In this document: positions 14,730-46,123 of the stretch, piece after piece
Layout of the letters: every line of letters starts with the position of its first letter
Numbering within the stretch: position 1 is the first letter of the stretch
From: an uncultured Chlorobiota bacterium
GTDB taxonomy: Bacteria > Bacteroidota > Ignavibacteria > UBA10030 > UBA6906
Length of the DNA: 64,000 nt
Direction of reading: 5' to 3'
Assembly (NCBI GenBank): GCA_900696645.1
Contig: CAADGV010000043.1
Location: 66,848 to 130,847, forward strand
Made by a program: the position numbers and the translations under genes
Notes under the pieces: generated by a model
Seen by the model: the letters and a program-made list of their open reading frames with translations, nothing else
What the model was told of the DNA's origin: nothing
Databases searched by the model: none

Positions 14730-16762
14730 TTCTTGATATCGGAGGAGCCAACGGGGGCAGGTTCGATGTGTCCGTTCCCCCGCTTTTCCAATGGCGGAAG
14801 TTCTTCGCCGCGAATGATGGTGTCGATCTCGTTCGCGTCAAGAATCTCGCGTTCGAGCAACGCCTGCGAAAGCCGGTGCAGCAAATCCATATGCTCGCGG
14901 AGAATCTTCTCCGCACGGTTCATGCCGCCCTCGACAATTTTCTTCACTTCGGCGTCAATGGCAATCGCCGTGTCTTCGCTGTAATTTCTCTGGCGTGTGA
15001 TTTGCCGCCCGAGGAAGATCTCTTCATCTTTCTGGCCGTACGTCAACGGGCCGAGCGTCTCGCTCATGCCCCACTCGCAGACCATTTTTCTGGCAATTTC
15101 CGTGGAACGCTCAATGTCGTTGCCTGCGCCGGTTGTCAGCTCACCGAAAATCAATTTCTCGGCCGCCCGTCCACCCAACGCGTAGCAAATCATGGCTTCG
15201 AGGTACGCCTTGGAATACGTGTGTTTCTCATCTATAGGAAGATACGTTGTTAAGCCGAGCGCCCTGCCACGAGGGATGATCGTCACTTTGTGCACGGGAT
15301 CGGCTTCGGGAATCATCCGCGCAACTAACACGTGCCCGATTTCGTGATACGACGTGATCTTCTTTTCTTTCTCAGAAATGATCATGCTCTTGCGTTCCAT
15401 CCCCATCATCACCTTGTCTTTTGCGTCTTCAAAATGCTGCATCGTCACTGCCTTGGCATTCTGACGTGCAGCAAGCAACGCTGCTTCGTTCACGAGGTTT
15501 GCAAGCTCGGCGCCCGCAAGTCCGGGTGAGCCTTTGGCAAGAGTCTCGAGTTTCACATCCTCGGCAAGCGGAATGTTCTTCGTATGCACGCGGAGAATCC
15601 CTTCCCTTCCCTTCACATCGGGACGGTCAACAACAACCTGCCGGTCGAAGCGGCCGGGACGCATGAGCGCGGGATCGAGTACATCAGGACGATTCGTAGC
15701 CGCGATAATAATGACGCCGCTGTTTTGCTCAAAGCCATCCATCTCGACAAGCAGTTGATTCAGTGTTTGCTCGCGTTCATCGTGCCCACCGCCGAGACCC
15801 GCGCCGCGGTGGCGTCCGACGGCGTCAATTTCGTCGATGAAGATTATGCACGGAGCGCTTTTCTTTCCTTGCTCAAACAAATCGCGCACACGGCTTGCCC
15901 CGACACCGACGAACATCTCGACAAAATCAGCTCCTGAGATTGAAAAGAACGGAACTCCTGCTTCACCGGCAACCGCGCGGGCAAGCAATGTCTTGCCGGT
16001 TCCCGGAGGGCCGAGCAGAAGTACGCCTCGTGGAATTTTTCCTCCGAGCTTCTGAAACTTCGTCGGCTCCTTTAAGAACTCAATAATCTCCTGCAACTCG
16101 ACTTTTGCTTCATCGGCTCCGGCGACGTCGAGGAATGTGACTTTCGGAGCCCCTTCGTTCAGCATTTTAGCCCGACTCTTCCCGAACGAGAAAATTCCCT
16201 TGGGCCCGCCGCCCTGCATCCTGCGCATGATGATAAGCCAAACGACGAGCAGAAGAATCCACGGCAGGATGCCGATAAGCGCGCTGATCCACGTGTTGTC
16301 TTCGCGAACAACGGTAAATTTGAGTCCGCGATCAGTCCAGTCTTTTATGACAGCGCTGTCGAGAATAGGCAGCGTGAGAACAAACTTGTCAAACACGACT
16401 TCCTTGCCGCCCCGCATCACTCTCTTGCGTTCACGTAACTTGCCGTGAAAATCATAGTTGGCCAAATCGGATTTCTTGATTGTGGCCTCGGCGATATCGT
16501 TCGCTTGCAGATATGCCTGATACTCGGTGTATGTGATTTCCTGCTCGGCGCCTTCGGGCCCTTTGAACATCTGCATCATCACAAACACGAGAACAATAAT
16601 TGCCGACCAACTGAGAACGACCTTCAGCACTCTGTTCCAGTTGAAATCATCATCCGGTCGGAATTGCTGCCCGGGACGTTTCTTTCCGGGTCGCTGAAAC
16701 CCGCGCTTCTTGTCCGAATCCCCGGAACGCATACCGCCGTCTGTCTTCTTTTTTTCGTCCAT
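14726..16762 (-). CDS. ftsH: ATP-dependent zinc metalloprotease FtsH
   Basis: Two N-terminal TM segments; Walker [24 protein letters not shown]; second region of homology (SRH) motif; HEIGHVL zinc site. Confidence 0.95.
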
Positions 16763-16784
16763 CTCTTCCTCGTTAACGTAAAAA

Positions 16785-17339
16785 TCAGCTTTCTTTCAAC
16801 CGGTAGATTGCCTTGAGATGACGCAGCTTCTGCGCGTAATCAAGGCCGTAGCCGATCACAAAATCCTTCGGAATCGAAAATCCGATGTAGTCAATCTTCA
16901 TCTGCGTTTTTACCGCATCCTTCTTGTACAGTAGAGTAACAACGCGAAACGACTTTGGGTTCTGATGGAGAATCAGATCGCGGATATACTCCATGGAGAG
17001 TCCGGAATCGATAATATCTTCCACAATGATGATGTCGCGTCCCTCCACCTGGCAATTCAAATCCTTCAGCAGCCGGACGTTCCCCGACGAAATCTTCGCA
17101 TCTCCGTAGCTGGAGAGCTTGAGAAAGTCGATTTCACAATCAATGCTCACTTCGCGAATCAAGTCTGAAAAGAAAATAAAAGAGCCGTTCAGAATACCGA
17201 TAAATACCGGCACGGTGCCTTTGTAGTCTTTGCTGATCGTCCGGGCAAGCTCCTTCACTTTTGCCTTGATGCGACGCTCGCTCAGCATGACAACGAAGCG
17301 ATCGCCGTTAATTTTCAGACTTTTTTTGTTGAAGGGCAT
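16785..17339 (-). CDS. hpt: Hypoxanthine-guanine phosphoribosyltransferase
   Basis: IIIVEDIIDSGLSM PRPP-binding loop; ...DYIGFSIPKDFVIGYGLDYAQKLRHL; overlaps the tilS 3' end by 32 nt. Confidence 0.9.
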   Translation of the reverse strand: MPFNKKSLKINGDRFVVMLSERRIKAKVKELARTISKDYKGTVPVFIGILNGSFIFFSDLIREVSIDCEIDFLKLSSYGDAKISSGNVRLLKDLNCQVEGRDIIIVEDIIDSGLSMEYIRDLILHQNPKSFRVVTLLYKKDAVKTQMKIDYIGFSIPKDFVIGYGLDYAQKLRHLKAIYRLKES

Positions 17340-18732
17340 TCTGCTTTGGTAATATGGAAAAATGAAGTTTCATCACCCGCCGCGTTTCCATCGTGACTTT
17401 GAATCTTTCGTCAATTCTGTATCCGCACACCCACACAATGTCGCCCCCTTTTGTTTCGAGAATCGGAACGAACGGCTTCTCGAACACCGGAATCTTGGCG
17501 TCGACGAAGAAATCGCTGAGCTTCTTGCGGCTTGTCATACCCAGCGGAATGAACCAATCTCCTTCCCGCCACGAGCGGATGATAAGCTCCTGGCCTTCAA
17601 CCTTGTCCGCATCGATATACTCGGTATCCCTGCCGTTCGTCGGGGCGATGCGCGTTTCAAGGATTTCCGACGAAAACTCGAACCGCTCGAACCGGTAGCG
17701 ATGAGCCGGAAGAACCGCAAACCGGAACTCCACCTTCTCTTCAACGCGTCGAAAGATCAGATGATCCCGGTCCCGATAGACAACGGAATTCTTGTCGATT
17801 TCGACTCGCGATCCGGTCAACCCTTCTGTTAACTCCAGCACCCGGCTTACGTTGTCGTATTCGAGTTTAGTTCCGGAGAATGCTTCGGAAGCCATCATGA
17901 CAATGTAGTGCTGGATCAACTTCGGAATCGTACGCAGCTTTGTGATTGAAAGATGCAGTTCCTCATTACTGTCGAACACAACAACGGACTGGTACTGGGC
18001 GCGGGCAGTCTCTCGGAGAAATACATCCAACTCACGAAACAACTCCGCCGATCGACTCATCGTCGAAACAACACCAGGATTCACTTCCTCTTTGATGAGA
18101 GGAAGGATCCGATGTCTGACAAAATTCCGTGTGTAATACTCCTTCTCGTTGGAGGAATCAATGCGGAATGTCAGATGCTCGGCGGCCGCGTAGGCCTCAA
18201 TCTCCGACCGTTCAGCAAACAGCAACGGCCGGATGATCCGCCGATCTTCGCGATACACGGGAATTCCGGAAAGACCCGTAACGCCGGAACCGCGGAACAG
18301 ATTCATCATGATCGTTTCAACATTGTCGTCGGCATTATGTGCCGTGGCAATTTTGTCGAACCCGCTTGAAAGCAACAGTTTGTCAAAGAACTCATACCGC
18401 AAGATGCGGGCGGCCTCTTGAATCCCAACACGATGCTGTTGCGCAAATGCTTCAGTATCGGCATGCTCCACATACAATTCAAATCCGTAGTGGCGTGCCA
18501 TGCGCACAACAAGGGCCTCATCGCCGTCGGATTCAGCACCCCGCAACCCGAAGTTGAAATGGGCGACTATAACCGTCAGCCCGAACGACTCCTGCTCCTT
18601 TGCGAGCAAGTCCAGCAACACCATTGAGTCGGCCCCGCCACTGACTGCGGCAATAATCCGATCACGCTCTTCAATGAGATGCTTCCGCCGGCTGAACTCA
18701 TGAAATTGCGTGACAAAAGCTCTCGACGACAT
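17308..18732 (-). CDS. tilS: tRNA(Ile)-lysidine synthetase TilS
   Basis: PP-loop IIAAVSGGADSMVLLDLL; TilS C-terminal domain; start set at MSSRAF (cat at 18730-18732); conserved tilS-hpt-ftsH synteny. Confidence 0.85.
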   Translation of the reverse strand: MSSRAFVTQFHEFSRRKHLIEERDRIIAAVSGGADSMVLLDLLAKEQESFGLTVIVAHFNFGLRGAESDGDEALVVRMARHYGFELYVEHADTEAFAQQHRVGIQEAARILRYEFFDKLLLSSGFDKIATAHNADDNVETIMMNLFRGSGVTGLSGIPVYREDRRIIRPLLFAERSEIEAYAAAEHLTFRIDSSNEKEYYTRNFVRHRILPLIKEEVNPGVVSTMSRSAELFRELDVFLRETARAQYQSVVVFDSNEELHLSITKLRTIPKLIQHYIVMMASEAFSGTKLEYDNVSRVLELTEGLTGSRVEIDKNSVVYRDRDHLIFRRVEEKVEFRFAVLPAHRYRFERFEFSSEILETRIAPTNGRDTEYIDADKVEGQELIIRSWREGDWFIPLGMTSRKKLSDFFVDAKIPVFEKPFVPILETKGGDIVWVCGYRIDERFKVTMETRRVMKLHFSILPKQNALQQKKSEN

Positions 18733-18919: not shown

Positions 18920-20518
18920 TTAAGTTCGAAGAAGATACAACGCGGTAATATCATCGCTTTGCGGAGCCGATCCCGTGAAGGAGGAAACGTCGCTCATGAG
19001 CGAGTGTATGAAATCCTCCGCACTTTCCGGCCGGTTGTTGATCATGAATTTCTTGAATGAATCACTCGTGTCGTAAAGCTCTTCGTCACTGTTCATCGCC
19101 TCGGGAACGCCGTCCGTGTAGAGCAACACACGTTCTCCCGGTTGGATGATGATCCGATCACTCTGATACGGAAAGTCGATATCGAGCATGCCGAACGCAA
19201 TGCCGCCGTTTGCAAATTCCTCGATCGTGTTGTTGTTCCGGTGAACGTACATCGGATTGTGCCCGGCGTTGATCGTCTCCAACTCTCCCGTCGCAGGATT
19301 GAGAACCCCGACGATGCCGGTAATGTAGCGTTCGGGAGTAGATGAGCGATACATTGCGCTGTTGAGTTTCTGTGCCAGCGTCAGCAAGGAAAACTCCACC
19401 TCAAGGTATGCTGTCAGATATGCATGAAAACTGCTGACCAGCAATGCTGCAGGAACTCCCTTCCCTGCAACGTCCGCCATAATCAACGCGTACGTTCCGT
19501 TTGCAAGAGGTATGCAATCGTAATAATCTCCACCGACCGTTTTTGTAGGAATATTGATTCCGAAAAGATCGTAGCTTGCAATTTCAGGAAGCTTTTCCGG
19601 TATGATACGCTTCTGTATCGCCGCGGCAACTGCAATATCCTGCTCAATTTTCTGCTTCTCCAACTCTTCATTATGCAGAAACTGGCTTTCGATCACCGCG
19701 TGAACCTGACGGCACACAGCAGCAAGAAGCATATTGTCGGTTTCATCAAACGGGATTGTGCCTGCCCGGCTTTCCTTTTCGTACAGATTGAATGCGTATG
19801 CTGCATCATGGAACGTGAATCCCGCATGAATTCGATGGCGCTTATCCTTGATGCGATGCGGTTTGATCCCTTCCGGAAACACCAACTCCCCGGTCACATT
19901 GCCGTTGATTGTTTTCTTGAATGTTCCCCACGAAGCATTCGTGAGTGAGGCTGCACGTTCGAGCGCGAGAATCGGAGGAGAGACTTTCTTCTTCGGCCTC
20001 GTCAATTCAATGCCCGTATCGATGAGACTGTTCAGTTGCAGCAGGCGGTGATTGAGTGAGAAGATGAGTTCCTTTTCTTTCCGCTGCTGAAGGTGAGCCT
20101 GATACGCGTTTGCAAAGAGTTGGAGAAAAATCTGAAGCGAGATCTTGTCGAGAGATGAGTATGCGCTGCCGTCGAGCTTACGGCCCAGTACGACGCCCGC
20201 CGATGATTTATCAACGAGCGGTTGAACGGCGGTCAGTTTCGGGTCTTTACCGCCGAATCCCTTCAGCATGAACGTTGTTGACGCTTCACCGAGATACTCG
20301 GAGCTATCTTGCCCTTTGCCGTACAGAAATTCCCATGAGTCGGAGGATTTCTGCTTTCGATAAATGGAGATTTCCGATGTAACGAAATTTCCGCGAAGGA
20401 GATGAAAGAACTGTCGTGATAATTCCTTCAGATTCGACGTACGGGAGAGGGCGTCAAATCCATCCTGCAACGAATCGATTTGAACGGAGAGACGATCAAC
20501 GAGATGTTGGGACGACAC
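18920..20518 (-). CDS. GAF-containing PP2C/SpoIIE-family serine phosphatase (RsbU-like)
   Basis: GINIPTKTVGGDYYDCIPL...ALIMADVAGKGVPAALL...YTDGVPEAMN (SpoIIE/PP2C motifs). Confidence 0.75.
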   Translation of the reverse strand: MSSQHLVDRLSVQIDSLQDGFDALSRTSNLKELSRQFFHLLRGNFVTSEISIYRKQKSSDSWEFLYGKGQDSSEYLGEASTTFMLKGFGGKDPKLTAVQPLVDKSSAGVVLGRKLDGSAYSSLDKISLQIFLQLFANAYQAHLQQRKEKELIFSLNHRLLQLNSLIDTGIELTRPKKKVSPPILALERAASLTNASWGTFKKTINGNVTGELVFPEGIKPHRIKDKRHRIHAGFTFHDAAYAFNLYEKESRAGTIPFDETDNMLLAAVCRQVHAVIESQFLHNEELEKQKIEQDIAVAAAIQKRIIPEKLPEIASYDLFGINIPTKTVGGDYYDCIPLANGTYALIMADVAGKGVPAALLVSSFHAYLTAYLEVEFSLLTLAQKLNSAMYRSSTPERYITGIVGVLNPATGELETINAGHNPMYVHRNNNTIEEFANGGIAFGMLDIDFPYQSDRIIIQPGERVLLYTDGVPEAMNSDEELYDTSDSFKKFMINNRPESAEDFIHSLMSDVSSFTGSAPQSDDITALYLLRT

Positions 20519-20535
20519 GGGTCTGCTCGCAATTG

Positions 20536-20886
20536 CTACGTTTGGAATGATTTGAGAGCATCAGGGACGGTCTTTTCCTTCCCGGCAAAGTTGAACAACC
20601 CCATTATGGAGAGCATCTTCTCGACGCCGGGATCAAGATTGGTGAACACGAGCTTGCCGCCTGTTTCTTCCAGCCGTTCGATAATTTCGATCAGAAAGGA
20701 CATCCCGATCGAGTTGACAACTTTTGATTGCGCCAGGTTGATAATCACCCGTCTGATGCCGGTATCAAAATGCTTACTGAACTCCTGCGCAATCGCTTCA
20801 CCGCCTTTGTTGTTGACATACCCCGACGTTGCAATCACCAGACACCCGTTCTGCACTTCTGATGTCAGTGTAAACTCTTGTTCCAT
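20536..20886 (-). CDS. STAS-domain anti-sigma-factor antagonist (RsbV/SpoIIAA-like)
   Basis: 116 aa; VIINLAQSKVVNSIGMSFLIEI...GGKLVF, with the candidate phosphorylatable Ser in a NSIG context. Confidence 0.75.
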   Translation of the reverse strand: MEQEFTLTSEVQNGCLVIATSGYVNNKGGEAIAQEFSKHFDTGIRRVIINLAQSKVVNSIGMSFLIEIIERLEETGGKLVFTNLDPGVEKMLSIMGLFNFAGKEKTVPDALKSFQT

Positions 20887-20894
20887 TATAGATC

Positions 20895-21311
20895 CTACGT
20901 CAGTTTCTTGATGAGCGTAATCTTTGTTCCTGTTTCTTTCGACTCGATGCGGAAATCATCCGACATCGATTTCATCAAATGCAAACCCCACCCGCGCTTG
21001 TCTTTCGAGCCGAATTTCTTCCCGATGTCCGGCGACTGAATTGCCGAAGGTTGGAATCCCTTCCCGTAGTCCCTGACAAAAATCGTCAGTTCTTGTTTGG
21101 ACATCGTGAACTCGACCCGAACAATCGGGTTCTCTTCGCCTGCATGTTCCAGTGCATTGATGATCGCTTCGGTAACGAGTACGCGGGCTTCCCCGACTTT
21201 CTCGTCGGTAATTCCGAGATGACGGCTGAGGCGTTCCAGTCCTTCAATCGCAACCAACTCGATATCGGGAATTTTGGGAAGTTCAATCTTCAGAGCTATG
21301 GTATCATGCAT
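20895..21311 (-). CDS. Anti-sigma regulatory factor Ser/Thr kinase (RsbW/SpoIIAB-like, GHKL ATPase)
   Basis: 138 aa; TEAIINALEHAG N-box; VRDYGKGF G1 box. Confidence 0.75.
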   Translation of the reverse strand: MHDTIALKIELPKIPDIELVAIEGLERLSRHLGITDEKVGEARVLVTEAIINALEHAGEENPIVRVEFTMSKQELTIFVRDYGKGFQPSAIQSPDIGKKFGSKDKRGWGLHLMKSMSDDFRIESKETGTKITLIKKLT

Positions 21312-21318
21312 AGGGGGG

Positions 21319-24300
21319 TTAGTCCTTCATCTTTACAGCAATCATCGTGATGTCGTCTTCCTGCACTGCCCCCTTCATCCACTCATCGCCCGAGAATGCG
21401 AGCCGGTTAATCACCTCTTGCGGTGTTCCGCCTGCTGCCTCCTTCAACACTTCATGAACCCGGGCATAGTCGAACATTTCTCCGGCAACATTCTTCTGCT
21501 CGGGCAGGCCGTCAGTCAGCAGTAGCAGCGAGTCGCCGGTCTGCAATTCTTCCTCATGAATAATGTAGGGAAAATTCTTCATTGCACCTAACGGCATCCC
21601 TTTGAGCAATACCTCTTCAACCGTTCCACTGCCGTTCCTGCAAATGAATACGGGCGGCATCCCGGCCGTTGCAAACGTAATCTTGTGATTGTTAATTTTC
21701 ACGAGTGTCAGAGCCATCAGCAGCCTGCCGAGTTTGATATCCTTGATTGCCTTGCTGCAATGGTTCAGGAATGCTTTGATATCGAGACGTGATGCATCAG
21801 AGGTGAAAAGCCCCTTCGTCAGCGTAACGACAGTTCCTGCCTGCATGCCGTGTCCTGTTGCGTCGCCGCATGCGATGCTGAGCGTGCCGTCTTCCGCGAG
21901 ATGAAAATCGTAATAGTCGCCGCCAACTTCGGTCGCAGTCTTCATGAACACGGCAATCTCCAACTGGGGAAGCTTCGGCACTTCTCGTGGAAGCATCGAA
22001 AGCTGAAGCTGTCTTGCCTCTTCCAACTCTTTTGTCTTGCGTTCGTTCTCGGCTTCCAGTGCCCGCTTTTCCGCTTCCGCAGCCTTCGCCCGCAGTTCGG
22101 ATTCGCGGACAAGCGCCTTCTGCTCCCGCCGGTTGATTTCAAACTTCCGAAGCTGATACAGCGCCCCGAAGAACATCAACACATATCCCGTATAGGCCCA
22201 GGCTGTTTTCCACCATGGCGGAGTTACAATGACAGTCATTGTTGTGCCTTGCTCGTTCCACACGCCGTCGTTGTTCGAGCCTTTCACACGCAGGGTGTAC
22301 CTGCCGGGATCGAGGTTGGTGAATGTTGCCCTGTGCTCGGTGCCGAGCTGGATCCAGTTATCGCTGAAGCCTTCCAGCTTGTATGTGTAACGGTTCTTGA
22401 ATGCGTTGTAGTAGCTCAGCGCTGCAAATTCAAATGTTGCGATATTGTCTTTGTACGTCAACTCAATCTTGTCTCTTACAGGAATGCCCCGCTCTTCTAT
22501 AGCCTTGCCTTCACTGTCATCCGTATTGTATCTGCGGAAGGTACTGAATACAACGGGTGGAACGAACGGATTGTCCTGCACGCGGTCGGGATGGAAAACG
22601 TTGAAGCCGCCGTTGCCTCCGAAGTACATTTCACCGGTAGTATGATTTTTTGCATAGGCATTCTGATTGAAATCTTCCCCCTGTAAGCCGTCGCTCGCAT
22701 CATAGTTGCGGAACGTTTCATTCACCGGATCAAATCTCGACAAGCCTTTGTTGGTACTGAGCCAGAGATGCCCTTTCCCGTCTTCCAGAATTCCGAAAAT
22801 ACTGTTGTTCGGCAGCCCCTCAGTCTCCCGATAGATTGTGAAGTTCCCCGTTGCGCGGTCGAGCCGGTTCAGTCCTCCTGTGGTACCGACCCAGAGGTTA
22901 TGCAGTCGATCTTCATAGATACACACGACAACGTCATCGCTCAGACTTGAAGGGTTTGACTTGTCATTCTTGAATACCGTGAATGTTTCCGTTTCGGGAT
23001 TGAACCGGTTGAGACCACCGCCGGCTGTTCCGACCCACAACACTCCCTCATGATCTTCATGAATCGCCCACACGCTTCTCGCACTCAAGCTGGTCGGAAC
23101 ATCCGAGTCATGGTTGTACGCTTTGAAGGTTTCAGATGCCCTGTCGAATTTGTTCAACCCGCCGCCGTTTGTCCCGACCCAAAACGTGCCTTTTCTGTCT
23201 TCCAACAACGCGTAAATTCTGTTGTCGCTGAGGCTTTTCGAATTGGCGGGGTCACGACGATAGTGTTTGAACGTACCCGTTTGCCGGTCGAACCGGTCGA
23301 GACCATTACTCATCGTTCCAATCCACAAGACACCTGAACGATCTTCATACATGACATTCGGAACATCTCCCAGGCTCTTCGGATTGGCGGGATCAGATTT
23401 GTAGTGGGTGAAGGATTTCTTCGCTTTGTCCAGACGATTGAGGCCGGCAGGCGTTCCAAGCCACACCATGCCGGAACGATCCACATGGATGGTCCTGACC
23501 TGGTTATCGTTCAGACTGTTCGGATTGCGTGAATCTCTTGCGTAGTGGGTGAATGAAGTCAAACCGGGATGAAACGTGTTCACGCCACCGCCGCTTGTGC
23601 CAACCCACAGAAGCCCCGACCGATCCTGATAAATGGAGAAAATCCAATTGCTGCTCAAGCTTCTCGGGTCGGTATCATCATGCTCGTAGTTGATGAACAC
23701 GCCGGTCTCCCGATCGAACCGGTGTAATCCGCTATTCACCGTGCCGACCCATAACGTGCCTTGTTGATCCTCGAAAATGGGCCATACCCAGTTGTCGCTC
23801 AGCGAATTCGGATTGCCGACTTCCTTTTTGTAGTGGATAAATGAATCAGTTGCGGGATCGTAGCGTTCGAGGGCACCACGCGTTCCTATCCATATCGTGC
23901 CCGAGCGATCGCCGTACACTGAATACACTCTGTTGTCGCTCAGACTTCGGGGATTGCCGGGATCATTCTTGTATTCCGTCTTCACGCCTGTTTTTGTATC
24001 GAGCCTCGTCAGCCCTCCGCCGGGCGTCCTTTGCCAGCGAACGCCTGCATGATCCTCGTACCAGGAAAAAACTGAACTGACTTTTGCATTCTTCAGGTCG
24101 ATGCTGTCCTTCTTTACCTGCGCGAACGTCTCCGTGAACTTGTCAAACCGGTTGAGAACATCGGCGTTGGTGAGTGTCTCAAACAACAAGATACCGTCCT
24201 TATCCTCGTAGATGGAAACGATGAAGTTGCCGTTCAGACTTTTTTCGTCGGCAGGATTGTGCTTGAAGACGGCAAAGGTGTATCCGTCGAATCTGTTCAG

Positions 24301-24489
24301 GCCTTCCTGCGTTCCGAGCCACATGAATCCTTGACTATCCTGAAGGATGCATGTAACGGAACTCTGGGAAAGTCCGTGCCGGACGTCCAGATGCGAGAAC
24401 CGGAGCGTGGCTTGTGAAAAGGAATGGGAATGTACAAGCTGGATGGTTAGAAAGAGGGCTGCAATTCTACAGCCTGACAAGAATGACAT
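21319..24489 (-). CDS. Periplasmic two-component-regulator-propeller / Y_Y_Y sensor fused through a TM helix and coiled coil to a PP2C/SpoIIE phosphatase
   Basis: Signal peptide; at least 12 propeller repeats (NRVYSVYGDRSGTIWIGT-type); Y_Y_Y domain (YTYKLEGFSDNWIQ); TM helix WAYTGYVLMFFGALY; Glu-rich coiled coil; SpoIIE motifs GGDYYDF...IACGDATGHGMQAG. Confidence 0.8.
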   Translation of the reverse strand: MSFLSGCRIAALFLTIQLVHSHSFSQATLRFSHLDVRHGLSQSSVTCILQDSQGFMWLGTQEGLNRFDGYTFAVFKHNPADEKSLNGNFIVSIYEDKDGILLFETLTNADVLNRFDKFTETFAQVKKDSIDLKNAKVSSVFSWYEDHAGVRWQRTPGGGLTRLDTKTGVKTEYKNDPGNPRSLSDNRVYSVYGDRSGTIWIGTRGALERYDPATDSFIHYKKEVGNPNSLSDNWVWPIFEDQQGTLWVGTVNSGLHRFDRETGVFINYEHDDTDPRSLSSNWIFSIYQDRSGLLWVGTSGGGVNTFHPGLTSFTHYARDSRNPNSLNDNQVRTIHVDRSGMVWLGTPAGLNRLDKAKKSFTHYKSDPANPKSLGDVPNVMYEDRSGVLWIGTMSNGLDRFDRQTGTFKHYRRDPANSKSLSDNRIYALLEDRKGTFWVGTNGGGLNKFDRASETFKAYNHDSDVPTSLSARSVWAIHEDHEGVLWVGTAGGGLNRFNPETETFTVFKNDKSNPSSLSDDVVVCIYEDRLHNLWVGTTGGLNRLDRATGNFTIYRETEGLPNNSIFGILEDGKGHLWLSTNKGLSRFDPVNETFRNYDASDGLQGEDFNQNAYAKNHTTGEMYFGGNGGFNVFHPDRVQDNPFVPPVVFSTFRRYNTDDSEGKAIEERGIPVRDKIELTYKDNIATFEFAALSYYNAFKNRYTYKLEGFSDNWIQLGTEHRATFTNLDPGRYTLRVKGSNNDGVWNEQGTTMTVIVTPPWWKTAWAYTGYVLMFFGALYQLRKFEINRREQKALVRESELRAKAAEAEKRALEAENERKTKELEEARQLQLSMLPREVPKLPQLEIAVFMKTATEVGGDYYDFHLAEDGTLSIACGDATGHGMQAGTVVTLTKGLFTSDASRLDIKAFLNHCSKAIKDIKLGRLLMALTLVKINNHKITFATAGMPPVFICRNGSGTVEEVLLKGMPLGAMKNFPYIIHEEELQTGDSLLLLTDGLPEQKNVAGEMFDYARVHEVLKEAAGGTPQEVINRLAFSGDEWMKGAVQEDDITMIAVKMKD

Positions 24490-24630
24490 CGCGTGCTTTT
24501 GCGTTCGAAATCAGTGTTAGGATTCTTTTTCAAACAGAAGAGGTGTCACAAACGCTTCATGACACCTCCTCATCACAACAGCTTCCGGTGTAAAGGTAGT
24601 GACGACCGGAAGATTATGCAAGTCCGGTCC

Positions 24631-27600
24631 TTATTTCAAAAACATCATCTTTCGCTGTTCGACGTACTCTCCCGCTTTCATGCGGTAGAAGAACACCCCG
24701 CTGCTTACCTGCACTCCCTGGTCGTTCCGGCCATCCCACACAACGTCGTACATTCCTGCATCAAGAGTATTCTGCACAAGAGTTTTTACCGCCCTGCCGA
24801 GAATGTCGTACACAACAACGCTCACATTGCGTTGTTCAGGCAACCCGAAGCGGATTGTGGTTGATGGATTGAAGGGATTGGGATAGTTTTGTTCGAGGCC
24901 GAAGGTTGCCGGGATTTCCGCCGGATTGAGCCCGTCAGGTTCGTTCGCCCATCCTGCAGCGGAGGGCTTCAGAATACCCGTGAATGCGCTGCTCAACGTA
25001 AACTCAGATTTCGCATCGGCAGAGATGGCATTGCCAAGGAAGGCCCCTGTTGCTTTTGTTTCCGCTTTGAACGATATCGTCCCGTTCGGGGCGTAGAAGT
25101 TAGCAAATATATCCGCCTTCGGTCCAAGAACAACGGCCTGGCTTCCTGTTCCGTCAACATAGAAAAGAATCCCCGATGCATCCAGCGGACTCCCCTGCGC
25201 CGGCCCGATGTACGATTCGGGATCACCGCCGACGCCGTTTACAACCCGTACGCGACTTTGTCCCGTAAAGAGAAGTTTTGCCTTGGCTTTTATCGAGAGA
25301 CTCCGGAACTGATACACTCCGGCGCCGTCCAGTCTCAGAGTTGATTGAGGTTGGAGAATAACGTCCCGATACGTTCCGGGGACGATTGTCATAGTCCCCT
25401 TTGTTGCGACGGCAACATCCTGCGTGCCCGCGGGCCCGGACTCAAACGCGGGCAATGTAGCAACGACGGGGAGGCTGAGCGGCGTAAACGATGCACCGCC
25501 GACAAATCCTTGATTCGTCAGCGAGTTGAAATAGATGTCGCCAAATGCTTTTGCCTGGGTCTTCAGCGCAATGCGGTTGGCCCTCAACGAGAACCCGGCA
25601 GGCGCCGATGACTTTGTTCCTAACGTCAACTCAGTCTGTGTTCCCGGAACGACATTGTTGACAATAACATCACCGGAGTTGACAACAACCTCGGTTCCCA
25701 AATTGATGTTGCTGTTGGCAAACAGCACGGCATTCGTTGAGAACGGAGACAGCACAAACACCGATTGCTGGATTTGTCTCCGGAAGCTGTCGGTAACGGC
25801 TGTTGCCTCGGCTCGTGCACGGATTGTGAAATGATAGCTGCCGCCTTCTGCGGTGTTGGAAAACTTGCCGGAGTATATCCCCGCACTCGTGTGGTTGAGA
25901 ACAATCGTCTGGAAGCCGGCCGTTCCGGGCACGATAACATCAGCCTCGACCTGCGCATTTGTTACCGGCCCTCCGCCGAATGTGTGATCGCCGCCGGGAG
26001 CCTGGCCGCCACGCGACAACCGCGCTTCAACGTTCACCTCATCATTGATAGCGTAGTTCAGTTTGTCGAACTTCACCGACATCGTAACGTCGGTCAACGC
26101 CACAATCGAAAGCCTGAGCGCCTCGGGAACAGGGGGTTCCGGTTCTGTGTTTGCCCCGTTGACGTGCAGCTTCCAAATACCGGCCGGAGCATTCTTGATT
26201 CGGTAGAACGCAAACGTCGGACCCGTGAAGTATTCTACTCCCGGAAAATTCGTGTAGTTGAACGGCGTTATGGTGTCGCCCGGAATCGGCGACAGAAGAC
26301 TCAGGAGAAACGTACTCCCTTGCCACGTCAGGCCCGGAAGAAGAAGAGTCGTTCCCGGATCGACAGCCCCTTGCCACGTCAAACCGCCTTGCCATGTCAG
26401 GCCACCCTGCCACGTGAGTCCCGGCGCGTTGGACATGAATGTTGTGTCGGCGAGAAGTTGCGCGCCTGTCAACGTATTCCAAATCTCATTCACAATCTGA
26501 CCGAGGGTGGTGTCGGAGGCAAGATAATATGCGCCGCCGGTCGAATCCGCCAACTTGCTGTTCAAATCCTGACCCGGACTTCCGGCAAAGCCCAACGTGA
26601 AGAGACGGGTTTGCGATGTTTTGATTGAAGGGAGAACACTCAACGCATCGGGTGTACCGTTATTGTCTCCCGCTCCGAATACGATCATCGCTTTGCCGTG
26701 GTTCAGTAATGATGAAGCATTCAGAAGCGATTGCGCTGTTTGCAGTCCCTGACCGAGAAAGCTCGTTCCGCCCGCCAACATATTTTCGATTCTGCTGATG
26801 GCAAGTGCCCGCGATGCATTATCCTGAATAGAAATCAGATCGGAGACGACCGTATTCGGCAACCGGATGACGCCGATTCTATCTCCCACTCTCATCTTCT
26901 CAACAAGCTCTACCGCGCTATTCTTTGCCGGGTTGAACGCGGCATGGGTGGATGTAAAACTCCCCGCTCCGTCAAACACAAGCACAACATCGATGTTGCT
27001 CTGCGGGAGATTTCTGAAAATGTAACCGATACCTGCAGTGTCCGGCGGATGCAACTCGCGTTTCGAAACTTCACCATTCTTGATGAATCCGAACATCGTT
27101 ACAAAATCATTTCCCTCTCCCATAAACGGAACATACTGCGGATATCCGGGATCGTAAATATCCCCCAATCCGCTGTAGTGCCCGATCTCATGCGTGGCAA
27201 CATTTTGGACATCCTTCTTCCCGGCTGTATCTGCCGGAGAAGGATTCGGCGGCACAATCACAAACGGGAAATGTTCCGCATTGAATGCGATGTCAACATC
27301 CGTAAATTCGCCGGTGATACTGTTGTAGCGGACACGCGTTACGGCAATTGTGGCCGGATCGGCCTGAGTAATGTATATCCAGCTTGAGGTAATCCAGGCA
27401 ACATTGTTAACGCCGTCCGGCAGGCCACCCCACACGTTGTTACTTGGTGACCCTACCTTGGAATAGTTCAGTTGGGGAAGGGCGCTCCATGTTGCGAATG
27501 CATTGTCCATCGGAGGTACGAACGAGGAGGGAATGTTCGTGCTTAATGAATATGTTCCGGTTCCGTTCGCCCAATGCAGCGGAATCCCGGACAGTGTGGT

Positions 27601-29049: not shown

Positions 29050-29117
29050 TATGATAGTCTCGTATTGTGAAGTCTGATTCGATTGTTGGTTCTGTAATCC
29101 CCTCTCGGATGAATCAA

Positions 29118-29624
29118 CTACTGGGCGTTTCGCACGGCACCCCTTACTCGCGTGGAAAACACCTCCAGCAATTCGCCTTCACCAACAACACGCTTGCCCG
29201 AAAACCGTTCTGTTGTCAGACTCAGCTTCCCTTGTTCCCCTCCGGTTACACGCAACGTTCCGCCGGCGTCGCGTTCGGCGAATACGACTACTTCTTCATT
29301 CTGTCGGAACCTGGCCACATGGCTGTACAATTCCCCCGCGCCATCGACTTCTCCGCCGGGAACGGTGATCGTTAAAGTCCGATCTTGTTGGCTTCCCTTC
29401 AAGTACTGATCGACGGCGATCGTCACCTTCGTGACTATTTTGGTTCTGTCGGACGACCATTCCGACTGCATCGACCGCACGGTGCCGATTGCAACGATGT
29501 TTGCACGGGTAGCGAGTTCTTCTGCGGTGATTCCTTGTGACTGACTTTCAGCTTCTGTCGCCACAAAAAAAACTGCTGCCAGTATTAGCAGCGACACAGG
29601 GCTCACACTCCATCTCTTAGTCAT
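29118..29624 (-). CDS. Hypothetical secreted protein
   Basis: MTKRWSVSPVSLLILAAVFFVATEAESQ signal peptide; start set at the ATG at 29624; no recognised domain. Confidence 0.45.
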   Translation of the reverse strand: MTKRWSVSPVSLLILAAVFFVATEAESQSQGITAEELATRANIVAIGTVRSMQSEWSSDRTKIVTKVTIAVDQYLKGSQQDRTLTITVPGGEVDGAGELYSHVARFRQNEEVVVFAERDAGGTLRVTGGEQGKLSLTTERFSGKRVVGEGELLEVFSTRVRGAVRNAQ

Positions 29625-30210
29625 GTTGCAAACCTCCAATGTTGTTTGTTCTGCATTGTAAATTCGTGATCGTACAATTTATTGCAGGAGTAATCCCACG
29701 CCGTCGAATGCCCAAGAAACCGGCACGAATGACATACAAAGAAAACTACAGCGGAGCATTCTTGATATGATACAACAGGAATTGTTCCTAAAACGAAGAG
29801 AAAAAAGATTTCTAAAGGAGGGAAACGTATCGACGGGCAACTCATACGGCAGCAAACATATCGGAATCTTCATAACGCAATCGTTGACTCGTCGGAATGG
29901 AATGTAAGAGAACAGGTGGAACGCGATGCATTAGAGCATCGACAACCTATAATACGCTAACCCCAAGATTTAGTCAATGGCTTTGTCAGACGATGTGATC
30001 GCTGTGTGCTGTGTATGTAAGCAATCTCAACACTCATTCCGTGCACCGGTGACAACGGGACGCCGGTCGCATATTTTTGCGCCACATCGATGAAGAAGAT
30101 GGGTGACTTCGGGCGAACAAAGCGGGATTCAGACAGGTGTTTGCCGGACAAAAGGCAAAAACTCCGAGAATATGATTTGGATGTGCATACCTTCGGAGTT
30201 TTGAATAGGG

Positions 30211-30284
30211 TAGCGGGAGAGGGATTCGAACCCCCGACCTACGGATTATGATTCCGACGCTCTAACCAGCTGAGCTATCCCGCC
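30211..30284 (-). tRNA. tRNA with CAU anticodon (Met elongator or Ile2; cannot be distinguished here)
   Basis: Reverse complement GGCGGGATAGCTCAGCTGGTTAGAGCGTCGGAATCATAATCCGTAGGTCGGGGGTTCGAATCCCTCTCCCGCTA; anticodon loop ATCATAA. Confidence 0.8.
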
Positions 30285-30294
30285 AGAAAAACTT

Positions 30295-32615: not shown

Positions 32616-32815
32616 GAAACGACCTTGTAACCTGCTTCGTCCACCGCACGCAGGAGATCGTTATGCGTGACCTTTGATTCGTCGTACGTGACGCGGGCGC
32701 TGCCGATTGTGACATCGTGAATTTCCACATTCTGCAATTTCCCAAGCTCCTTCGTCACACTCATCACACAATGGCCGCAGGACATGCCTTCGATTTTGAG
32801 TTCTACGGATTTCAT
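32612..32815 (-). CDS. copZ: Copper chaperone CopZ (HMA domain)
   Basis: 67 aa with [10 protein letters not shown] in a ferredoxin-like betaalphabetabetaalphabeta layout. Confidence 0.9.
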
Positions 32816-32932
32816 CAGTTGTTCCTATCAGGTTGATTGGTTTGTACGATACAAATATACAATCTGAAGGGAGGAAACTCCTTATAGAATTATGGAAGAA
32901 AGTTGCAAATACATCCCTCCCTCCTATCTCAA

Positions 32933-32960
32933 AAAGCAAAAAGCCCCCAAAGGGGGACTC
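32933..32960 (-). terminator. Intrinsic terminator after the T9SS propeller gene
   Basis: On the minus strand: GGAGTCCCCC-TTT-GGGGGC followed by TTTTTGCTTTTTGAG. Confidence 0.6.
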
Positions 32961-32986
32961 CTTACTTGAGCAGAAAATGAGTTCGG

Positions 32987-36257: not shown

Positions 36258-36836
36258 ATGCCTCGCCTTACACTCGATGAAATCAAAACCCTGCTCACGG
36301 CAACAAATGACACTCCCCGCAAGTCATTTTCCATCGAGGGCTATTCACGCGCGGCCGTTCTTGTTCCCCTTATTCTGACCGGGAACTCTTTCGACCTGCT
36401 GTTCACAAAGCGGACTGAATCGGTTGAAACGCATAAGGGGCAGATTTCATTTCCGGGAGGGATGGTTGATGCGGCGGATCGCGATGTTTTCCATACGGCG
36501 CTTCGCGAAGCCCACGAGGAGATCGGGCTGACTGATTCATGTATTGAGATTGTCGGAATACTCGATGATATGGCAACTCCAACAGGCTTTGTCATAACCC
36601 CGATTGTGGGTGTTATTCAGGAGTTGCCTGAACTTGCCCCGAACAATGAGGAAGTGGCGGAAGTGTTTCGTGTGGGATTGGATTTCTTCTCCCAGCCGTC
36701 GAGTGGGCGAACCGAACTGCGGGAGTTTCACGGACGCAAGCACGAGGTCTGGTACTACGACTGGCAAGACAAGGTGATCTGGGGCGCCACTGCCATGATG
36801 ATCCGGTCGCTACTCAAGAAGCTGAAACTTGCCTAA
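36258..36836 (+). CDS. NUDIX hydrolase, CoA pyrophosphatase-like (NudL family)
   Basis: LVPLI...LLFTKR...HKGQISFPGGMVD...ALREAHEEIGL (Nudix box GG-x5-E-x7-REAHEE-x-G). Confidence 0.8.
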   Translation: MPRLTLDEIKTLLTATNDTPRKSFSIEGYSRAAVLVPLILTGNSFDLLFTKRTESVETHKGQISFPGGMVDAADRDVFHTALREAHEEIGLTDSCIEIVGILDDMATPTGFVITPIVGVIQELPELAPNNEEVAEVFRVGLDFFSQPSSGRTELREFHGRKHEVWYYDWQDKVIWGATAMMIRSLLKKLKLA

Positions 36837-37432
36837 ACTGCAAGCGCAAACTCAGGTGTCTCGAAGCTCTCCCCTGTTTCATAGCCGATGTTTTTGGCGT
36901 ATTCCTTCAGGTTACTGTACAGAATGCTTCTCGCTCTGTGAAGGCGTGAACGGACCGTGCCGATGGGGATATCGAGAACTTCGGCGATTTCTTCGTAGGG
37001 CATATCTTCAAGATCCCTTAATACAATCACGCTCTTGAATTTCTCAGGCAACGCCGATATTGCCCCGGACACCTCGTCACCGAGCATCTGATGTTCAACG
37101 CGGTCGCGCAAGTCGTTCGAATACTGCATGTCGTGCCGCACGAATTGGTACGGGGAAATCTGCTCGTCATACTCCACAATTTCGGGCTGGCGCTTCACGC
37201 GCCGGTATTCGTTGATGAATGTATTTCGCATAATGCGATAGAGCCACGCCTTCGCATTGGTGCCCTCTTCAAACTTGTCAAAGAAACGGTACGCCTTCAT
37301 AAAGGTCTCTTGGAGGAGGTCGCTCGCGTCGTCAGCCGATCCGGTCAAGTAATAGCCGTAGTTGTACAGCATATCGGAGTATGGGAGCATAATATCCTTG
37401 AATTTCGAGTGTTTTTCGAAGTTTGTGCTCAT
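36833..37432 (-). CDS. ECF-type RNA polymerase sigma-70 family factor
   Basis: Region 2 DLLQETFMKAYRFFDKF...WLYRIMRNTFINEYRR; region 4 YEEIAEVLDIPIGTVRSRLHRAR. Confidence 0.85.
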   Translation of the reverse strand: MSTNFEKHSKFKDIMLPYSDMLYNYGYYLTGSADDASDLLQETFMKAYRFFDKFEEGTNAKAWLYRIMRNTFINEYRRVKRQPEIVEYDEQISPYQFVRHDMQYSNDLRDRVEHQMLGDEVSGAISALPEKFKSVIVLRDLEDMPYEEIAEVLDIPIGTVRSRLHRARSILYSNLKEYAKNIGYETGESFETPEFALAV

Positions 37433-45778: not shown

Positions 45779-46123
45779 TTACGACAGCGCTTTGACAGCG
45801 TCGTCGCGGGTTTCCGCAACATCAAATACCATCGTCAGCTTCGTAATCACGAAGATGTTGTTGATATTGTTGTTGATGCCGCAGAGCTTTACGACCCCAT
45901 TGTTGCGGGAATAGGTGGTATGCGCCTGAACGAGAACTCCGATGGCTGTACTGTTCAGGTATGTCACTTTGCTTAAATCGATGATGAGCTTCTTGTTGCC
46001 CTGCTCCACGAAATCCGCCACTGCACTCCTCAACTCGTCTGTCTCTTCGCCGCCAACGAGTGAGCCTTTCACTTCGATAACGCCGATTTTGCCGCTTTGA
46101 AGCGTGGTTGTTTTGACTGACAT
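45779..46123 (-). CDS. STAS-domain protein (stand-alone anti-sigma antagonist-like)
   Basis: LIIDLSKVTYLNSTAIGVLVQA...; start at MSVKTT (cat at 46121-46123). Confidence 0.65.
   Translation of the reverse strand: MSVKTTTLQSGKIGVIEVKGSLVGGEETDELRSAVADFVEQGNKKLIIDLSKVTYLNSTAIGVLVQAHTTYSRNNGVVKLCGINNNINNIFVITKLTMVFDVAETRDDAVKALS

Follow-up and report, generated by a model that had tools for sequence, protein, structure and literature searches.

A putative two-input partner-switching module with a periplasmic propeller-type sensor phosphatase and no adjacent sigma factor gene in an uncultured Ignavibacteria bacterium

A partner-switching gene set without an adjacent sigma factor gene

The window (the whole 64,000-nt stretch of DNA that was analysed) contains a cassette of four minus-strand genes that probably constitutes a functional two-input partner-switching module of the RsbU/RsbP–RsbV–RsbW type, with an output partner that would be encoded outside the operon. 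Most likely, one input comes from the envelope and the other from the cytoplasm. The genes encode, in order, a sensor phosphatase, a kinase, a STAS protein, and a second PP2C phosphatase (Table 1). An ORF check found all four ORFs exactly where the earlier note had placed them, and metagenome gene callers agreed. The intergenic gaps measured 7, 8, and 17 nt; the range of 8–17 nt given previously was correct at its upper end and off at its lower end. Pfam annotation, which covered the whole window, returned the domains that the earlier note had listed for a check (Reg_prop, Y_Y_Y, SpoIIE, HATPase_c, as HATPase_c_2, and STAS). Downstream of the cassette follow tilS, hpt, and ftsH; Pfam identified none of the downstream genes as a sigma factor gene. 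A complete RsbU/RsbV/RsbW-type set without an adjacent sigma factor gene is thus supported, and the earlier proposal of a module lacking a sigma factor was borne out for the gene neighbourhood, by Pfam annotation of the window and by the other loci described below.

Table 1. Positions of the cassette genes, their domains, and other features discussed in the text
Feature	Positions (nt)	Residues (aa)	Strand	Evidence
Cytoplasmic phosphatase, 532 aa	18920..20518		-	SpoIIE E 2e-41 (Pfam)
PP2C/SpoIIE domain of 532-aa protein	18932-19501	340-529	-	Pfam
Tandem GAF-like sensor of 532-aa protein, long connecting helices	~19600-20518	1-~305	-	Predicted fold
STAS protein, single-domain, RsbV/SpoIIAA-like, 116 aa	20536..20886		-	STAS E 1e-13 (Pfam)
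Predicted phospho-acceptor Ser59 of STAS protein (codon)	20710-20712	59	-	
RsbW/SpoIIAB-like GHKL serine kinase, 138 aa; candidate anti-sigma or partner-binding protein	20895..21311		-	HATPase_c_2 E 1e-22 (Pfam)
Sensor phosphatase, 1056 aa	21319..24489		-	Pfam, PDB sequence matches
Sensor N-terminal signal/anchor		1-26		
Sensor propeller blades (~14)	22420-24402	~30-690	-	
Sensor Y_Y_Y Ig-like domain	22225-22416	692-755	-	Pfam E 3e-18
Sensor TM helix, single	22153-22209	~761-779	-	Read from sequence
Sensor coiled-coil linker		~785-845		Read from sequence
Sensor PP2C/SpoIIE domain	21328-21891	867-1054	-	Pfam SpoIIE E 6e-33
Hairpin between giant and sensor genes, 16 bp, terminator candidate	24537..24571		-	RNA fold
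Secreted giant protein, 1472 aa	24631..29049		-	Pfam, NCBIfam
Signal-peptide protein, 168 aa, just upstream of giant gene	29118..29624		-	Translation
ECF sigma factor, orphan; speculative trans target	36833..37432		-	Sigma70_r2/r4_2 (Pfam), NCBIfam ECF families
Second STAS gene, heading exbB-exbD-exbD-tonB	45779..46123/46174		-	STAS E 3e-15 (Pfam)

Sensor phosphatase

The sensor phosphatase contains eight Reg_prop repeats (Pfam, E = 6e-62), and its periplasmic part matched the structures of hybrid two-component system (HTCS) sensors (PDB 4a2l, E = 1.5e-112; 3v9f, E = 9e-96). Homology with the HTCSs of Bacteroides thetaiotaomicron (BT4663-type; 4a2l/4a2m and 3v9f) extends over ~750 aa and comprises the double beta-propeller, the Y_Y_Y domain, and the single TM helix, and the sensor gene, like those of HTCSs in polysaccharide-utilisation loci, lies beside genes for secreted or surface proteins. 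The output, however, is a PP2C domain. Pfam detected only SpoIIE after the TM helix, and the HisKA, HATPase_c, REC, and AraC-type HTH domains were absent, whereas in loci from other phyla that matched only residues 1–~810 of the sensor, a histidine kinase occupies the position of the PP2C domain. The protein is therefore not an HTCS, and the description of a Bacteroides HTCS-like propeller/Y_Y_Y sensor with a SpoIIE output instead of a histidine kinase was confirmed by these Pfam and structure matches. In sequence comparisons with the PDB, the PP2C domain matched those of Rv1364c, RssB, and SpoIIE, and its GGDYYD (856–861), DATGHG (876–881), DG (993–994), and DD (1045–1046) motifs were invariant in 26 homologues with identities down to 36%.

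The architecture is not rare, contrary to what the earlier note had implied: the Y_Y_Y–TM–PP2C part was matched by ~1,650 clusters at 50% identity, and such proteins are already annotated automatically in databases under the label 'ligand-binding sensor domain / serine phosphatase RsbU'. Among uncultured Ignavibacteria-like bacteria, this design is widespread. A literature search found no open-access paper joining Y_Y_Y or 'regulator propeller' to SpoIIE, PP2C, or RsbU, and a search on partner switching in Ignavibacterium returned nothing.

Second phosphatase

No TM segment was seen on inspection of the sequence of the 532-aa protein. Its catalytic residues (D331, D334, D349, G352, G354, D469, D522, and D523) were invariant in 31 homologues; in the phosphatases, the PP2C motifs GGDYYD, DxxG(H/K)G, TDG, and DD(I)T were invariant among homologues. 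The full-length AlphaFold model (pLDDT 86) matched, at its C-terminus, the PP2C domains of SiaA, RssB, SpoIIE, and RsbX in Foldseek; the best match was SiaA (6k4e, E = 6.5e-13), which is itself a membrane PP2C. Since the PP2C domain dominated this search, the N-terminal 312 aa were modelled separately (pLDDT 84), and this model matched the GAF-A/B tandems of PDE5A, PDE2A, and PDE6 and the GAF-PHY regions of phytochromes (E = 3e-8, TM 0.4–0.5). A search for the Pfam GAF domain in the protein and 30 homologues, at E values up to 1, gave no match. Of the GAF-PP2C RsbU-like phosphatase proposed earlier, the PP2C assignment thus held, whereas the GAF assignment failed by Pfam and was recovered, as a GAF-GAF tandem, only in the predicted fold. 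A tandem GAF fold of the N-terminus is thus a prediction of the model. The protein shares this predicted layout (GAF-GAF, long helical linkers, and PP2C) with RsbZ of Clostridioides difficile, a tandem GAF–coiled coil–PPM phosphatase that initiates sigma-B activation; coiled-coil-linked PP2C dimers have been proposed as a general activation mechanism (PMC12143880). Unlike in the RsbZ setting, the GAF region lacks Pfam GAF similarity and there is no sigma-B in the locus.

Kinase and STAS protein

The kinase is of the minimal RsbW/SpoIIAB type, without an extra domain, and aligned with RsbW (6m36, E = 6e-8) and SpoIIAB (1til/1l0o). The alignment placed the N-box at E48/N52, the G1 box at D81-x-G83-x-G85, and the G2 box at G107-W-G-L110, and the G1 and G2 residues (D81, G83, G85, and G107-W-G-L110) were invariant in 31 loci. 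The cassette proteins did not attain the NCBIfam equivalog cut-offs for RsbW, SpoIIAB, or SpoIIAA; because the matches of the kinase to the spIIAB and RsbW families both scored under these cut-offs, it is judged from its sequence not to be an orthologue of either protein. The STAS protein aligned with SpoIIAA (1th8/1auz), with S59 opposite the Ser that is phosphorylated in the DSSG motif, and N58-S59-I60-G61 was invariant in 30 orthologous loci. Judged by these alignments, the catalytic motifs and S59 are intact in the four cassette proteins.

Conservation of the cassette

In Ignavibacteria, Calditrichia, and related uncultured 'Bacteroidota', the four genes are passed on together. In five loci (L016, L022, L024, L025, and L029), the triple of kinase, STAS, and second phosphatase genes is inverted or relocated, still at ≤8 kb from the sensor gene. 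The flanking genes vary among genomes, and conservation does not extend outside a six-gene block consisting of the genes for a small secreted protein, a giant T9SS protein, the sensor phosphatase, the kinase, the STAS protein, and the GAF-GAF phosphatase. One could suppose that the adjacency is fortuitous or decaying, with phosphatases that serve other substrates and a kinase/STAS pair that is a relic; its sole point in favour is that no output gene is identifiable. Given the gaps of 7–17 nt, the invariance of the catalytic and acceptor residues across ~30 orthologous loci at 50–75% identity, and the retention of the cassette despite rearrangement and differing flanks, we consider this very improbable.

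Conserved secreted neighbours

The adjacency of the cassette to the genes for the small secreted protein and the giant T9SS metalloprotease/VWA protein, which the earlier note did not mention, is new here, almost always present, and the strongest contextual signal. The giant protein carries a signal peptide, a beta-helix, a VWA domain (aa 687–853), and a T9SS C-terminal sorting domain (Pfam and NCBIfam), as well as a zinc-metalloprotease motif, HEIGH, at aa 620 (found with an HExxH regular expression). The 168-aa protein had no Pfam or NCBIfam match, and only 29 homologues were found, all 'hypothetical'. Its gene is syntenic in 22 or more loci, and also in L085, L086, L089, L090, and L091, and wherever the flank is long enough, the giant gene is found upstream of the sensor orthologue. 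The small, giant, and sensor genes adjoin in all of the 22 or more loci with enough flank, and this adjacency is more constant than that of the sensor and kinase genes. L087 and L088 have the four-gene cassette without the giant gene.

The RNA fold of the region between the giant and sensor genes (24490–24635) had an MFE of -46.2 kcal/mol (z = -3.45), and GC-rich hairpins with T-runs were present 3' of the giant gene in most orthologous loci. The 16-bp hairpin in the window is probably the terminator of the upstream unit, and the giant and small genes probably form a transcription unit separate from the cassette. Because this probable terminator divides the giant gene from the sensor gene, the giant gene and the cassette are coupled by neighbourhood only. 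In the region preceding the small-protein gene, no promoter element (dyad or k-mer) shared among 29–30 loci rose above shuffled sequences. Two candidate promoter motifs upstream of the sensor gene in 29–30 loci, TGGAATGC and TGAAGTAA, were rejected, as they belong to the 3' end of the giant coding sequence. A scan of the window for sigma-70 promoters and terminators gave counts no better than chance.

The constant neighbourhood raises the alternative that the output is not a sigma factor and that the unphosphorylated STAS protein or the kinase acts on an effector tied to the production, secretion, or anchoring of the giant T9SS protein. Besides the adjacency itself, STAS proteins such as SypA, BtrV, HsbA, and SiaC provide precedents (PMC8256260; for SiaABC, PMC7647112), and the propellers of the sensor show a resemblance to the T9SS component PorZ (NCBIfam NF052228, E = 4e-33, well under the cut-off). 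This resemblance, however, is generic propeller similarity; moreover, the giant gene probably belongs to a separate unit, L087 and L088 lack it, and no candidate effector gene is conserved within the six-gene block. On balance, we regard a non-sigma output of this kind as rather unlikely. Still more speculative, and in our view distinctly unlikely as a whole, is that the six-gene block is a surface-protein surveillance circuit, in which the propellers would respond to the giant protein itself, to its small partner, or to something that the giant protein releases from an extracellular polymer, and STAS Ser phosphorylation would relay the signal to a non-classical target, namely an ECF or primary sigma factor or a non-sigma effector. 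If so, the block would be a PP2C-based counterpart of the HTCS–PUL logic of Bacteroides.

Sigma factor genes and the second STAS gene

The ECF gene is the only sigma-70-family gene in the window. It lies 12 kb from the cassette, between a gene for an M1 peptidase and a convergent one for a NUDIX/CoA pyrophosphatase, and has no anti-sigma gene beside it; the earlier statement that the sole sigma factor in the window is an unlinked ECF without an anti-sigma was upheld by Pfam annotation of the window and the neighbouring genes. Sigma genes other than the ECF type were found neither in the window nor in any locus examined. Eight distinct genomic contexts were compared, and no sigma gene was present within ±10 kb in L001, L085–L089, or L091. 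The exception was L090, in which the cassette is followed by a separate module in which a kinase–STAS pair immediately precedes an ECF sigma gene; the kinase of this module is only distantly paralogous to the cassette kinase, and a comparison of the STAS proteins gave no match. The L090 ECF was rejected as a counterpart of the window ECF, as their 27% identity is generic ECF similarity.

These observations bear on whether the cassette lacks a sigma factor in gene order only, that is, whether the kinase is a classical anti-sigma factor that sequesters a sigma factor in trans, either an orphan ECF, such as the one in the window, or the primary sigma factor. The minimal form of the kinase and the lack of an anti-sigma gene next to the window ECF are consistent with this, the L090 module shows that such pairings occur in the lineage, and binding of the primary sigma factor has been proposed for the RsbW of Chlamydia, which reportedly binds sigma-66 although no sigma gene lies next to its own (PMC4552016). 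On the other hand, the L090 kinase and ECF are only distantly related to their counterparts in the window, no ECF-like gene occurs near the cassette in the other ~85 loci, and the window ECF lies 12 kb away, past the block that is conserved between genomes. We regard sequestration of a sigma factor in trans by a classical anti-sigma kinase as somewhat less likely than not.

The second STAS gene heads the TonB operon, as noted earlier, and its product keeps a Ser at the phospho-acceptor column of the alignment. That it travels with the cassette together with exbB and tonB was rejected. Because other genomes show no synteny between this gene and the cassette, its product as an additional substrate of the cassette phosphatases, also suggested by the earlier note, is speculation.

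Proposed mechanism and comparison with known systems

In the proposed two-input module, the kinase would phosphorylate Ser59 of the STAS protein and, when free, sequester a partner protein. Binding of a periplasmic ligand, probably a glycan or another envelope-derived polymer, would alter the sensor dimer, and the single TM helix and the coiled-coil linker would carry this change to the PP2C dimer, switching the phosphatase on. A separate cytoplasmic small-molecule cue may act via the GAF-GAF-PP2C enzyme. Either phosphatase would restore the unphosphorylated STAS protein, which would capture the kinase and release its partner. The partner would most likely be a sigma factor or some other regulator whose gene lies elsewhere; candidates are an ECF-type or the primary sigma factor, because only ECF-type sigma genes occur in the window and the loci examined. 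The conserved giant and small secreted neighbours suggest a link between the giant surface protein and either the signal that is sensed or the process that is regulated. It is reasonable to infer, as the earlier note did, that an envelope ligand signals through STAS Ser phosphorylation, because the catalytic and acceptor residues are intact and invariant. Past the phospho-cycle, we infer partner switching by homology, and its direction is not readable from the sequence because the opposite logic operates in some STAS systems: BtrV favours binding in its phosphorylated form, and SypA, when unphosphorylated, serves as the output (PMC8256260).

The cassette is a variant of well-known partner-switching systems and leaves the present understanding of partner switching unchanged. 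The concept is not novel: partner switches without a sigma factor, and membrane-bound PP2C sensors that carry periplasmic domains, have been described, as in Chlamydia RsbU, SiaA, BtrU/V/W, and SypE/A (PMC8256260, PMC4552016, PMC11619594, PMC7647112). The same three protein families form the sigma-B switch of Bacillus subtilis (RsbU, RsbP, RsbV, and RsbW), in which two PP2Cs with different sensors likewise converge on one STAS/kinase pair, and the cassette conserves the acceptor Ser of the STAS protein as well as the N, G1, and G2 boxes of the kinase. Unlike that system, the cassette has no sigB-like gene and no RsbT/stressosome or RsbQ partners, and one of its phosphatases spans the membrane and carries a large sensor in the periplasm. 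The Rsb system of Chlamydia trachomatis is similar in being a Gram-negative partner switch with a membrane PP2C, two STAS proteins (RsbV1/RsbV2), and no dedicated alternative sigma gene beside its genes. Its RsbU is described as a transmembrane PP2C with a ligand-binding periplasmic domain (PMC4552016, PMC11619594; Soules 2020 via PMC8256260). However, the fold of this sensor domain is not propeller/Y_Y_Y, the genes are dispersed, and there is no second GAF-PP2C. The Bordetella BtrU/W/V, Vibrio SypE/SypA, Pseudomonas HsbR/HsbA, and SiaA/B/C systems share the phospho-switch logic without a co-encoded sigma factor, but they have other sensor domains and known linked effectors (T3SS, the syp locus, and the SiaD cyclase), whereas the cassette operon contains no effector gene.

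The cassette provides two leads: what a minimal RsbW-like kinase controls where no sigma-B/F-type gene is encoded nearby, and what keeps the module linked in the genome to the gene for a giant T9SS cargo protein. If the proposed mechanism is correct, a glycan-type periplasmic sensor of the Bacteroides HTCSs has been rewired to Ser/Thr partner switching in Ignavibacteria, Calditrichia, and their relatives, a large and mostly uncultured group, and the sensor phosphatase would be a natural example of a previously proposed modular exchange, in which histidine kinases and PPM phosphatases swap sensor domains (PMC12143880).

Identity and integrity of the cassette proteins

Four minus-strand ORFs, which the earlier note had placed at the coordinates in the table, were found exactly there, and independent metagenome gene callers called them identically on ten contigs with the same sequence. 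The Pfam searches recovered the Reg_prop, Y_Y_Y, SpoIIE, HATPase_c_2, and STAS domains in the expected proteins. The genes are spaced by 7, 8, and 17 nt; of the 8-17 nt claimed earlier, the upper value stands and the lower should be 7 nt.

Features of the window and their assignments
Feature	Coordinates (strand)	Size	Domains or remarks
Sensor phosphatase	21319-24489 (-)	1056 aa	8 significant Reg_prop repeats (E 6e-62), Y_Y_Y aa 692-755, SpoIIE/PP2C aa 867-1054 (Pfam)
Kinase	20895-21311 (-)	138 aa	HATPase_c_2 (Pfam)
STAS protein	20536-20886 (-)	116 aa	STAS (Pfam)
Second phosphatase	18920-20518 (-)	532 aa	SpoIIE aa 340-529 (Pfam)
Giant secreted protein	24631-29049, within 24631-29624 (-)	1472 aa	Beta-helix, HEIGH metalloprotease motif aa 620, VWA, T9SS C-terminal domain
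Small protein	29118-29624, within 24631-29624 (-)	168 aa	Signal peptide; before giant gene
ECF sigma factor	36833-37432		Lies within 36159-37432 with its neighbour
Second STAS gene	45779-46123		Precedes exbB-exbD-exbD-tonB
Two-component and TonB string	40142-49783 (-)		Histidine kinase (HAMP-PAS-HisKA), NtrC-type sigma-54 activator, then STAS-exbB-exbD-exbD-tonB-PBP-TPR
tRNA-Gly/Tyr/Thr cluster	5-310 (-)		Window start
Receiver-domain protein	5872-6354		Stand-alone; after squalene set
Squalene synthesis set	6323-9376 (-)		Two squalene/phytoene synthase paralogues and amine-oxidase-type flavoprotein in a row; HpnC/HpnD/HpnE-like
tRNA-Met(CAT)	30208-30285 (-)		Between copper-ATPase and small-protein genes
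Copper/heavy-metal block	30363-34958 (-)		P-type ATPase with HMA domain, AraC-type regulator; T9SS-CTD BNR-repeat protein gene between
Large T9SS cargo genes	52549-55398 (-), 58168-63015 (-)		
Gp49-like (HigB-type toxin) gene	57349-57687 (+)		

The kinase aligned with RsbW (6m36, E 6e-8) and SpoIIAB (1til, 1l0o) and contained the N-box (E48, N52), the G1 box (D81-x-G83-x-G85), and the G2 box (G107-W-G-L110), and Ser59 of the STAS protein fell on the phosphorylated serine of SpoIIAA in the alignment. The STAS motif N58-S59-I60-G61 and the kinase G1 and G2 boxes were invariant across 30-31 orthologous loci. In the sensor, the motifs with which PP2C enzymes bind metal (GGDYYD 856-861, DATGHG 876-881, DG 993-994, and DD 1045-1046) did not vary among 26 homologues with identities as low as 36%, and the same set was likewise constant in 31 homologues of the 532-aa phosphatase. 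Because the catalytic motifs, kinase boxes, and Ser59 motif are invariant, all four proteins look active and under purifying selection. None reached the NCBIfam equivalog cut-offs for RsbW, SpoIIAB, SpoIIAA, SpoIIE, or SiaA, and judged by their sequences they are superfamily members, not orthologues, of these proteins.

Clear homology links the periplasmic part of the sensor to hybrid two-component systems (HTCS) of Bacteroides thetaiotaomicron whose sensor-domain structures have been solved (4a2l/4a2m, E 1.5e-112; 3v9f, E 9e-96; 3ott, E 4e-49). Y_Y_Y is followed in turn by a PPWW motif that is conserved, a single hydrophobic helix (aa ~761-779), a strongly charged helical stretch of ~60 aa, and the PP2C domain. 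The Pfam domains and the 4a2l/3v9f matches thus agree with the earlier description of an HTCS-type periplasmic propeller/Y_Y_Y sensor with a SpoIIE output.

The rarity that this description implied did not hold. Database relatives of the sensor numbered in the thousands, and the best 120 were all full-length and 57-70% identical, with the Reg_prop/Y_Y_Y/SpoIIE architecture common to all; many were already labelled by JGI as 'ligand-binding sensor domain-containing protein/serine phosphatase RsbU'. With the query cut to aa 690-1056 (Y_Y_Y-TM-linker-PP2C), an exhaustive search (E <= 1e-30, clustered at 50% identity) gave 1,649 clusters, and ~120 of the best 150 matches covered the whole query, at the C-terminus of 1,050-1,260-aa proteins. 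Among species-representative genomes, full-length matches came from Ignavibacteria, Calditrichales, and unclassified 'Bacteroidota' MAGs, whereas in Cyanobacteria, Chloroflexota, Thiotrichales, and others the sensor half alone matched and was followed by a histidine kinase. With PP2C-bearing relatives so abundant and a histidine kinase after the same sensor elsewhere, the architecture is therefore not a rarity but a common case of one sensor type being fitted with a different output.

The second phosphatase had been described as a GAF-PP2C protein. Its PP2C part was confirmed, but GAF was absent by Pfam from the protein and 30 homologues, even at E = 1. Confident AlphaFold models (pLDDT 86 at full length, 84 for aa 1-312) placed two alpha/beta modules at the N-terminus, both built from one helix and then a sheet of five strands, with helices of 45-50 residues as connectors. 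In Foldseek, the aa 1-312 model matched the tandem GAF-A/GAF-B of PDE5A, PDE2A, and PDE6 and the GAF-PHY of phytochromes (best E 3e-8), so the protein is predicted to be a GAF-GAF-PP2C enzyme at the fold level. At that level, its predicted architecture is the one described for the Clostridioides difficile sigma-B phosphatase RsbZ (PMC12143880). No TM segment was found in its sequence, and it is presumably cytoplasmic.

Gene neighbourhood and the giant T9SS protein

In most orthologous loci, the kinase, STAS, and GAF-GAF-PP2C genes directly followed the sensor; in five of the compared loci (L016, L022, L024, L025, and L029), the triple was inverted or moved but still lay <8 kb from it. Many Ignavibacteria and Calditrichia loci (L009, L011, L013-L015, L018, L030, L032, L048, L056, and L087) carried 2-4 extra propeller/Y_Y_Y-PP2C paralogues in tandem beside a single kinase/STAS pair, suggesting a multi-input hub in which many inputs reach one switch. 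L087 also encodes a SnoaL/DUF4440-PP2C protein of 1341 aa.

A regularity absent from the earlier note is that, wherever an orthologous locus extended far enough upstream (22+ loci), the sensor was immediately preceded by the giant and small-protein genes; the giant gene was missing from the more distant cassettes L087 and L088. No known family was found for the small protein. Genes outside this six-gene block varied by genome (tilS/hpt/ftsH in the window, gyrA/gyrB in L085, a PepX-like peptidase in L086, and a cNMP-binding protein in L089). The conserved synteny of the giant gene with the sensor suggests that this T9SS protein is involved in what the module senses or in the process it regulates. 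Between the giant gene and the sensor, the window has a terminator-like 16-bp hairpin (z -3.45), and similar GC-rich hairpins with T-runs follow the giant gene in most loci; the partner-switch genes therefore probably form a transcription unit of their own that has stayed beside it.

In several Ignavibacteriaceae loci (L009, L013, L017, L018, L020, and L030), the interval between the terminator of the giant gene and the sensor gene holds a conserved, palindrome-containing stretch, 'CTATTTTCAA...(T)ATGCAC-N8-GTGCATA', ~60-90 nt ahead of the sensor start. This possible operator is missing from the window.

Output and proposed mechanism

Pfam annotation covered every sizeable ORF of the window. 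As claimed earlier, no sigma gene follows the kinase: tilS, hpt, and ftsH are the next genes downstream of the cassette, and the sole sigma-70-family gene is an orphan ECF flanked by genes for an M1 peptidase and, in convergent orientation, a CoA pyrophosphatase (NUDIX), with no anti-sigma gene among its adjoining annotated neighbours. Its best NCBIfam similarity was to SigH-like families, below the cut-off. In the annotated contexts (L001 and L085-L091), no sigma gene lay within ±10 kb of the cassette except in L090, a related MAG (GCA_964523395.1), where the cassette is followed at 15833-18350 by genes for an RsbW-like kinase (138 aa), a STAS protein (94 aa), an ECF (177 aa), and a 417-aa protein without assignment. 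These genes overlap or are separated by short gaps, possibly a partner switch that shares its locus with an ECF sigma gene; this kinase-STAS pair is only distantly related to that of the cassette, and its ECF is only 27% identical to the window ECF. The output of the cassette may be a trans-encoded sigma factor, for which Chlamydia (PMC4552016) and the arrangement in L090 are precedents, or, with roughly equal likelihood, an effector other than a sigma factor, on the pattern of the SypA, BtrV, HsbA, and SiaC systems (PMC8256260, PMC7647112).

The second STAS gene had been proposed to supply another phosphatase substrate. It does head a TonB-system operon, which is unusual, with an NtrC-type regulator and a histidine kinase just upstream, and it keeps the acceptor serine; however, its string was not near the cassette in other loci, and a role as an additional substrate is only a possibility.

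The comparisons establish the parts list of the cassette, the integrity of the parts, and their co-inheritance. By the established behaviour of RsbU/RsbP-RsbV-RsbW and SpoIIE-SpoIIAA-SpoIIAB, the kinase would phosphorylate STAS-Ser59 and, unless held by STAS, bind its partner; either phosphatase would restore unphosphorylated STAS, which would capture the kinase and free the partner. Following the HTCS structures and the coiled-coil/PP2C-dimer activation model (PMC12143880), a ligand would rearrange the periplasmic propeller dimer, and the change would reach the PP2C dimer via the one TM helix and the helical linker. In this scheme, the module would combine two inputs, one from the envelope and one from a small molecule in the cytoplasm that the GAF tandem senses, much as the Bacillus pathway has an environmental (RsbU) and an energy (RsbP) branch.

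Every concept in this finding already has precedent. Partner switches without a co-encoded sigma factor, the convergence of two phosphatases on one STAS/kinase pair, PPMs with a GAF tandem, and the swapping of sensor modules between PPMs and histidine kinases are all known, and Chlamydia RsbU, SiaA, and SpoIIE are, like the sensor phosphatase here, membrane PP2C sensors with periplasmic domains. What sets the cassette apart is that its partner switch takes input from an HTCS-type double-propeller sensor and that, in an FCB lineage, its genes are tightly linked to one for a T9SS cargo protein. We found no paper on the propeller-sensor/partner-switch architecture in the open-access literature; annotation pipelines already label it.

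Other features of the window

T9SS substrates are abundant in this part of the genome. One of the two further large cargo genes encodes a CotH-kinase/lamin-tail-domain protein with Por_Secre_tail; the product of the other, 1615 aa long, combines a fungalysin (M36)-like propeptide and protease with Ig-like domains. The tRNA-Met(CAT) gene is separated from the 168-aa gene by ~570 nt of non-coding sequence, and metagenome gene callers (L001) also predicted an HMA protein of 67 aa, encoded directly upstream of the P-type ATPase gene. The Gp49-like gene and a neighbouring small ORF are possibly a toxin-antitoxin pair.
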